IMG/VR virus record: IMGVR_UViG_2728369593_000020
Reading direction: 5' to 3' (one strand)
From: a virus
Taxonomy: Duplodnaviria; Heunggongvirae; Uroviricota; Caudoviricetes
Length of the DNA stretch: 27,648 nt
Shown here: positions 3,001 through 6,000 of the stretch, one piece after another
How the letters are laid out: the number at the start of each line of letters is the position of its first letter
Position numbering within the stretch: the first letter of the stretch is position 1
Program-made: the position numbers

Positions 3001-6000
3001 GGAAAAAAAGCATTGGATATGTTTGGTTTATTCAATGTCTCTCAGATGGCATTAGAAATACCCAGCACCGTTCCGGGTATCTCTGGTAAATATGGTGTCC
3101 AGCTAAACATTGTAAAACCAGATATTCATCCTACATCAGGTAATTATTTTTTACAGATATTCCCTTTGCATGATGAAATAGGTATTAATTTTAAAGACCT
3201 TCCTGGTCCATTAAAAAATGCATTAAGCAACAGCAATATACCAACCACTGTATCGACTGCTGCATCCACTATTGCATCAGCCACTACTTCGACGGTAACC
3301 ACCGCGTCAAAAGACCCAATACCATGGTTTGGATTAACAGCTCAAGTAGTTCGTAATCATGGTGTGGAACTTCCTATAGTCAAAACTGAAAATGGATGGA
3401 AGCTTGTTGGAGAAACTCCTCTTACTCCTGATGGCCCCAAAGCAAATTATACTGAAGAGTGGGTGATCAGACCGGGAGAAGCAGATTTTAAATATGGTGC
3501 ATCTCCACTACAGGCAACTCTAGGGCTGGAGTTTGGCGCACATTTCAAGTGGGATTTAGATAACCCTAATACTAAATATGCCGTTCTTACCAATGCTGCC
3601 GCAAATGCGCTTGGTGCTGTAGGGGGATTTGCAGTATCCAGATTTACTGGTACAGATCCAAATGTTAAGTCCTCATATCGGTGCAATGGTTGGGCAAGCA
3701 GCGGGGCATGCCATACAGTATAATACCCCCGGATTAAAGCCAGACACTATTTTATGGTGGGCAGGTACTACTCTTGGACTGGCTGATTTAAACAAGGCCG
3801 AGTTTGGAGAGGCCAGATTCACTGACTATCCTCGTATATGGTGGCATGCAAGAGAAGGTGCCATTTTCCCAAATAAAGCAGATATTGAACATGCCACAGG
3901 GGCTGATATACGCGCAATGGAAGAAGGTGTATCTGTTGGACAACGGCATCCAAATCCAGAGGATGTGGTCATCAATATCGAAAGCAATAACTCACCACAT
4001 CATAACCCATCAAATTATGTTGATACCGTTGATATAATCCAAGAAACAAGAGTCTAAGCTTTAACTTGTTTATTTTAAAATAATAGCTGAAATGGATGAC
4101 GGCTATTATTAATAAGGATTAATATTTTTTTCCTAAAATCCCCCACAAAACAAACACACCAGAAAAATTCTAAACACATACACCTAAGCTCAAAAAATAA
4201 ACTTACTATTTAACTTAGCTTCCGTTTTTAATCAAATATTTTCAGACAGCATCTCCACAGAAAAATTCAGTTACATAAAGACGCCCTCAAGTCATCTGAA
4301 ACCTGTCAACCACAGACACCTTCTTATATTCCTGATGCCTGTGGCGTTTTTTTACAAATTCCATTCCAAGATGGAACGAAGATGAATTAATATCTGAGGT
4401 TAATGGCATAATAAAGCTCCCTGTTTTAATTTGAACTCCAGACTTAAAGGTCCACAACAAATGTCATCCACAAATTTTTCCCTCGTCCCATCAGCACACC
4501 GAATTTGCAGCGGCCTCACCACGCACTGTATCGGCTTTTTATCCGCATCCAGTATCACCACCTGCGTGATTACCCTGTCCTGCTCCGGAATAATGCCCTA
4601 TTCGCTTGTTCTCAGAAATTGCCAGCAACCTTACACTACTTCTTTTGAGCCCATTTTTCGCCAGCCCTGAATACAGGAAAGTGTTAACTGTTTTTATGTT
4701 TACCCTCATCTCACTGGCGAGATGGGACGGACGCAACTGACGGTAGATATATCCAAACATCACCACCATCTCTGACATCGTCAGTGCCCGTGCTTTTTTG
4801 TTCCAGGTCCACAATCTGTTACGCACAGCATTATGTATATCATGTCCCCCTTTCAACGCTTCCAGATCCAGCTGAATAAAACGGCGTCCCTGAAACATGC
4901 TGCGCATTAAATGGCCCAACTGACTATCACAGATTATTAACCAGGATTCTTTACTATCCAGAATAACCCTGCGATTCTCCGGCATAAAAAATTCTTGAGC
5001 CAGAATTACACGGCATCCTTTCAGTAACAAACGCAAACCATATTCCAGATAATAATTACGCGTCGCAAGAATGAGCTTCATCGCCGAACTTCCCTGAACT
5101 ACAGTAGTGTTCCATGCCTCGGTCGCAATCAGAATTTATGATTCCCCCTCCAGGGAACAAGATGGACATATCACTGCTCCTTAAAGGCATCCTTCACTCC
5201 ATCGTATTAACATGTTTATTACTTCACACTCTAATAACAAATATCCCCTATACATGACAACAAAAACCGGAGCCGGACTCCGGTTTTGTGAAGCTGTCGG
5301 GTTACTTCATCCCGCCAATATTTTCCCACGTCCCGTCAGCACGCAGGATTTGCAGCGGTCTTACCACACACTGTATCAGCTTTTTATCTGTATCCAGTAT
5401 CACCACCTGTGTGATTACCCTGTCCTGCTCCGGAATAATGCCATTCTCATCTGACTCCAGGATGTCTGCCGGCCCCAGTCGCAGTTGTGCTGTAAGCGAC
5501 TGCACGTGTTCACGGCCATCATGCTTTCCGCAACCACACAGACGCTGCATAAGTTTTTTTAGTATATTCATGTCACTCTCCTGTTCTGCCTGTATCACTG
5601 CCCACTTCATCCAGCCCCTTGACATCCTGCCACGGCCCGTCACCAAACCTGACCTGCAAATGCTGAAAAAACCCCTGAACCCGTGTGGCATCTTTGGGGT
5701 CAAGAAAGGTCAGTCCGGTGATGAGTGCGCCATCTGTATCCGGGAACCAGCCATTGCTGTTTGTCTCAATAATGTTTCCCGGCCCCAGACGGAACCGTAT
5801 TTGTGTCTCCCCCGGGTCGCCCTTCGGTCCCTGAGGTACCGGTTGCCCCCACCGGGCCAGCCGCACCTGTTTCTCCTTTCGGTCCCTGTGGGCCTGCCGG
5901 GCCTGCCGCACCGGTATCTCCCTTTGGACCCTGTGGACCTGCATTTCCCGTCAGACCGGTCTCTCCCCGCTCTCCCCTGTCACCTTTCGGCCCCTGCGGG

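Follow-up and report, generated by a model that had tools for sequence, protein, structure and literature searches.

We examined a side tail fiber gene (stf) in a 27,648-nucleotide (nt) stretch of Caudoviricetes DNA (IMG/VR record IMGVR_UViG_2728369593_000020; hereafter, the window), which represents the last 27.6 kb of contig AKYH01000013.1 in the draft assembly GCA_001605745.1. As deposited, the gene is split between 2 reading frames by one extra T at position 5838 of the minus strand. Judging from sequence comparison, the locus is an ordinary EPclA-type side tail fiber of a lambdoid, effector-carrying prophage of the kind found in enteropathogenic and enterohemorrhagic Escherichia coli (EPEC/EHEC). 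Because single-base insertions and deletions (indels) are in excess over substitutions across the contig, we infer, with a probability of roughly 0.68, that these indels, T5838 among them, are consensus errors of the draft assembly, and the frame break in the fiber is unlikely to be a biological feature.

The fiber gene and its 2 reading frames

The whole split gene occupies positions 6887 to 5573 (minus strand) and encodes, in order, a PfN domain, a putative coiled coil, a collagen-like region (Col), and a PfC domain. The upstream open reading frame (ORF), 6887..5766, is 373 amino acids (aa) long. Its residues 1–133 (6887–6489) form PfN (Pfam PF08400, phage_tail_N; E = 1.7e-67), and residues ~134–250 show, by eye, an abundance of A, S, and E and are nearly identical to those of relatives; they putatively form PCoil, which would be expected at this place. 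The collagen repeat (PF01391; E = 6.6e-18) then stays in frame between residue 251 (6137) and Gly350 (5840–5838), past which 23 out-of-frame residues ending in GAGKHY lead to the stop codon at 5768–5766. The remainder of the fiber, comprising the last collagen triplets and PfC (~5800–5609), lies in the other frame (5837..5573, minus strand; stop at 5575–5573), which is open from 5944 to 5573 (123 aa) and matches PF06820 (Phage_fiber_C; E = 4.3e-36) over its residues 49–112. In agreement with this arrangement, tblastn places residues 1–359 of an intact 437-aa relative in one frame and residues 351–437 in the adjacent frame, the latter segment at 98.9% identity.

The frame break is therefore present in the deposited sequence, and the first-pass annotation had described it correctly in several respects. 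The Pfam matches to PF08400 and PF01391, together with the position in the tail module, bear out its identification of a collagen-repeat side tail fiber gene, and the tblastn split and the second-frame PF06820 match confirm that one frameshift parts the fiber body from the conserved C-terminal domain, with the upstream frame ending in GAGKHY and the other continuing into the fiber C-terminus. Its estimate of about 435 aa for the fiber after removal of one base was also sound, the exact length being 437 aa. The 2 frames overlap by ~180 nt (5944–5766), and deleting any single base within the overlap yields an ORF of this length. The statement that both frames keep Gly-X-Y phase over 5766–5840 holds for ~5840–5805, because the Y codons there end in G before GGN (CAG-GGA, AAG-GGC, CCG-GGG), so that the shifted frame reads GGG; it does not hold for the rest, as downstream of 5805 the collagen pattern is gone in both frames.

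Position and nature of the lesion

We aligned positions 5700–6200 with the intact fiber genes of EPEC strain E2348/69 (425 aa), O157:H7 strain DEC4E, and strain 2013C-3342 (both 437 aa). The sole frame-changing difference from the 3 intact genes is the extra minus-strand T5838 (A on the plus strand), which converts ACCGG-ACCTCAG into ACCGGTACCTCAG and appears likewise in the list of indels relative to E2348/69. The insertion turns GGACC into GGTACC, creating a new KpnI/Acc65I site, and its context is not a homopolymer. T5838 is absent from all 14 related loci, each of which is single-frame.

The first-pass annotation had placed the break at a C5 run at 5809–5813 and had suggested alignment to intact prophage fibers as a check. 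The run exists (G5 on the minus strand, C5 on the plus strand), but it is invariant in E2348/69, DEC4E, 2013C-3342, and the 14 related loci, and T5838 lies 25–29 nt upstream of it; the alignment located the lesion at T5838 rather than at the run, which we reject as the break point. With T5838 deleted, the gene encodes 437 aa, and the protein departs from its E2348/69 counterpart by one mismatch and a 12-residue difference in collagen length. Deletion of a base of the G run also gives 437 aa, at the cost of 5 more mismatches to the intact relatives, and the junction peptide proposed earlier was accordingly wrong. In the protein repaired at T5838, Col comprises 111 residues (251–361) of uninterrupted Gly-X-Y, followed by PfC at residues 363–426; PfC (PF06820) is fused in frame only after a one-base deletion and, as deposited, sits in the neighboring frame. 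The DNA belongs to the EPclA-type fiber family, and the deposited ORF is a disrupted copy of such a gene.

The collagen repeat also varies in length among these relatives: at 5994–6016, the window, DEC4E, and 2013C-3342 carry 36 nt (12 residues, 4 Gly-X-Y triplets) that are missing in E2348/69.

Distribution of the broken allele

The broken allele was found in the present contig only. We ran an 81-nt probe centered on the insertion against 5,426 complete E. coli genomes: the GGTACC allele occurred in none of the 5,428 probe matches, which came from 693 of the 5,426 genomes, no match reached at least 99% identity, and the best was 80/81. Nor was the allele found in IMG/VR or in the GTDB representative genomes, and the precise 373-aa product has been recorded for a single contig, AKYH01000013.1. 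An exact look-up found neither of the 2 repaired 437-aa proteins, a result that is uninformative in that the same look-up also missed the recorded 373-aa product.

A natural arrangement in which the fiber ends at GAGKHY and the C-terminal domain is encoded by a separate gene had been named in the first-pass annotation as the observation that would overturn its interpretation. A protein search did return other proteins ending in GAGKHY, namely P0069 (372 aa, 37 members, from a 5.36-Mb contig) and P0079 (326 aa). On sequence grounds, both are other frameshifted copies of the fiber gene, with different break points and with collagen read out of frame, rather than orthologs that end there naturally, and we reject a 2-gene architecture. 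Such an architecture is also weakened by the separate PfC-domain gene downstream of the fiber (5302..5571, minus strand; 89 aa; PF06820, E = 1.8e-34), the counterpart of which accompanies intact fibers in relatives as well, according to RefSeq annotation.

Could the 2 frames be functional, with programmed +1 ribosomal frameshifting (for example, at CCC-GGG-GGA) or phase variation of the G5 run producing both a PfC-less and a full-length fiber? The ~180-nt overlap is compatible with this idea, since a +1 shift anywhere inside it would fuse the frames, and CCC-G contexts are prone to +1 slips. Against it, the 2-frame architecture occurs in 0 of the 5,428 complete-genome copies and in 0 of the 14 related loci; relatives all have the same G5 run, and 5 bases are short for a contingency tract; the region 5860–5740 has no excess of RNA structure (folding z = −0.57 versus shuffles); and 9 other genes or sites of the contig carry similar indels. 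Given the lack of conservation and of RNA structure and an indel at 5838 rather than in G5, we reject programmed frameshifting and phase variation, and consider a functional role of the 2 frames extremely unlikely.

Single-base indels across the contig

The fiber gene is one of several genes of this contig that are disrupted in the same manner. The window is 99.5% to 99.9% identical to the corresponding prophage of E2348/69, in which all of these genes are intact. We counted indels relative to E2348/69 over the window plus 7.4 kb upstream (~35 kb in total; the upstream part includes 3.5 kb of core genes) and found 10 single-base indels against ~19 isolated substitutions. Besides the extra base at 5838 in stf, these are a contraction of A8 to A7 in nleF (L017:6863), an intergenic +T at 2647, a +A (AA to AAA) at 3662 in nleA (2734–4057, plus strand), A6 to A5 at 8738 in J, T6 to T7 at 14742 and +C at 15470 in the tape measure gene H, C4 to C3 at 17191 in T, and +T at 20783, which creates GTCGAC, and T4 to T5 at 21514, both in the portal gene. 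In tblastn comparisons, nleA, stf, J, and T are each split once, and H and portal twice; on either side of its break, the type III effector NleA has 100% identity to its E2348/69 counterpart.

At a natural indel-to-substitution ratio of 0.1 to 0.2, the Poisson probability of at least 10 indels is 3e-5 to 6e-3. Seven of the 10 indels are insertions and 7 of the 10 are changes in run length; those beyond stf include 6 run-length changes and 2 insertions outside runs. Errors of long-read or flow-based chemistries typically show a profile of this kind, dominated by insertions and run-length changes. The nleA and portal insertions, tested in the same way as that in stf (3 indel alleles in all), are likewise absent from the 5,426 complete E. 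coli genomes, and the broken nleA and J products, like that of stf, are each recorded on AKYH01000013.1 only (J by cluster listing). The isolated substitutions comprise 12 transitions and 7 transversions (4 upstream ones counted); with this proportion and with 3 of the insertions lying outside runs, a lineage with defective mismatch repair (mutator) is unsupported.

If the indels are consensus errors, the stf gene would read as 2 frames merely through one extra base in a draft contig, and the true gene would encode an intact 437-aa trimeric fiber. In such a protein, the PfN collar would join the tail tip, the coiled coil and the 111-residue collagen triple helix would make up the shaft, and PfC would be the distal head that trimerizes and nucleates the helix. 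The several near-identical lambdoid prophages present in such strains may have aggravated the consensus errors.

Several points weigh against an assembly error. The call was made from the assembled consensus, and a literature search on the accession GCA_001605745.1 for its sequencing method gave nothing. The stf insertion and 2 others fall outside homopolymers, a less typical setting for 454 or Ion Torrent errors. The trpCBA genes, 3.5 kb of core sequence in the upstream part, contain 2 substitutions and no indel, although at the observed rate the probability of finding none is ~0.35; this stretch is too short to separate error from decay, and its lack of indels does not discriminate between them. 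Finally, real frameshifted copies of the fiber gene probably exist elsewhere, as represented by P0069 with its 37 members.

Some of these points speak for the main rival reading, in which T5838 is a genuine mutation that arose recently in this strain alone, within a decaying prophage; we regard it as possible, if somewhat unlikely. The base is, after all, in the deposited sequence in a context that is not a homopolymer; selection on prophage genes is often relaxed, and here the flanking trp genes are free of indels; frameshifted fiber copies occur in other assemblies (P0069 and P0079); and some complete genomes have annotated frameshifted J and nleA genes. With the inserted T, moreover, the direct repeat of GGGGCAACCGG at 6047 and 5849 grows from 11 to 12 nt and the palindromes ACCGGT and GGTACC appear, which fits templated or slippage mutation and would arise by accident in ~1 in 4 cases. 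Yet 10 indels per ~19 substitutions is 3 to 7 times the usual ratio, the 12 transitions and 7 transversions carry no mismatch-repair mutator signature, nleA and nleF are also struck even though effector genes are normally maintained, and none of the tested indels (stf, nleA, and portal) is common to another genome. The product of a real mutation would be a 373-aa fiber with PfN, the coiled coil, and ~100 in-frame collagen residues, lacking the PfC head. By analogy with the stf frameshift of lambda PaPa, any particles would then be without functional side fibers; with J, H, T, and the portal gene broken too, the prophage could make no particles.

A narrower version of a real event, in which templated or slippage mutation inside the collagen repeat gave rise to a PfC-less collagen fiber trimerized by its coiled coil, appears very improbable. 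If true, the readability of Gly-X-Y in 2 frames would make shifts partly tolerated and could yield bacterial collagen variants with altered C-termini.

Prophage context and neighboring genes

From its gene content and sequence similarity, the prophage is the counterpart of the E2348/69 nleA/nleH/nleF prophage beside the trp operon. The genes follow in the order J, lom, fiber, the 89-aa PfC-domain gene, and the effector genes nleA and nleH. The lom gene (7039..7638, minus strand), encoding an Ail/Lom outer-membrane protein, lies directly upstream of the fiber gene, as in lambda, and is preceded by the tail tip gene J (7706..11178, minus strand), which is split by the deletion at 8738. Between the fiber and the effector genes, a 180-aa ORF (4539–5081, minus strand) has no Pfam match at E ≤ 0.01; at this place, relatives carry an NleG-like/DUF1076 gene or pseudogene. 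Partial copies of the PfC module at 4472–4618 and 1022–1090 flank the effector genes, and the effector cassettes appear, from these sequence remnants, to be bracketed by pieces of fiber C-termini.

Differences from E2348/69 of other kinds were also present. Dense mismatches and small indels are concentrated at 11253–11652, between J and a tail assembly gene, and at 9569–10414, within J; from this clustering, the 2 patches look like mosaic recombination tracts, not point mutation. The portal gene contains a tandem repeat at 20473–21067 (162-nt unit, 3.3 copies, 94% matches), inside which the +T at 20783 is located. In E2348/69, ISEc13 is inserted between an IS200 element and trpA (L018:5392–6943), whereas it is missing here (L017:3513–3521), and the window therefore derives from a strain related to, but distinct from, E2348/69.

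Relationship to known side tail fibers

The closest described protein is EPclA (ECs2717 type) of O157:H7 Sakai, which has the architecture PfN-PCoil-Col-PfC and in which PCoil and PfC are both trimerization modules, PfC nucleating triple-helix refolding (Ghosh et al. 2012; PMC3368898). After removal of T5838, the fiber of the window has the same domain order, with PCoil putative, and shares the Col length of 111 residues and the position of PfC (363–426); it is 97% identical to the 437-aa fibers of DEC4E and 2013C-3342. The genomic locus is the same as well: J and lom precede the fiber, and it is followed by a small PfC-domain gene and by type III effector genes. The difference is that, in the present contig, PfC is put out of frame by one extra base. 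The nearest sequence is the E2348/69 fiber (WP_000216481.1, 425 aa), which, compared with the full repaired protein, has a single amino-acid mismatch and differs in being without the 36 nt of collagen repeat and without the frameshift; its prophage region has ISEc13 near trpA.

A precedent for the lesion is laboratory lambda PaPa, which differs from Ur-lambda by a frameshift in stf (Hendrix and Duda 1992, as cited in PMC12617516). There, too, a single-base frameshift splits stf, and the distal, receptor-binding part is not made (PMC12617516). The relationship extends to the N-terminus: the first 94 residues of the present fiber match the collar of Ur-lambda Stf (PDB 9E7M/9MGH; E = 7.8e-48), and it would therefore be the N-terminus that attaches to the tail tip, with PfC as the distal head. 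The 2 fibers differ in that lambda's has a shaft and tip related to T4 gp37 rather than collagen-like (PMC12617516), whereas the present one combines a collagen shaft with a PfC head. They also differ in the status of their lesions, that of lambda having been verified experimentally and the one described here having been read from a deposited draft sequence.

Implications

The fiber family, its genomic setting, and the type of lesion are all already known, and the main value of these results lies in annotation quality: they correct where the lesion lies and call for caution with AKYH01000013.1. Pseudogenes of stf, NleA, NleF, J, H, and portal should not be inferred from this contig without read-level confirmation. 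More generally, the repair of broken frames is better guided by alignment with intact relatives than by the nearest homopolymer, which in this case gave a protein of the right length with the wrong junction peptide. Should the lesion prove real, it would be one more lambda PaPa-type loss of a side fiber in a defective prophage, a known and ordinary event.
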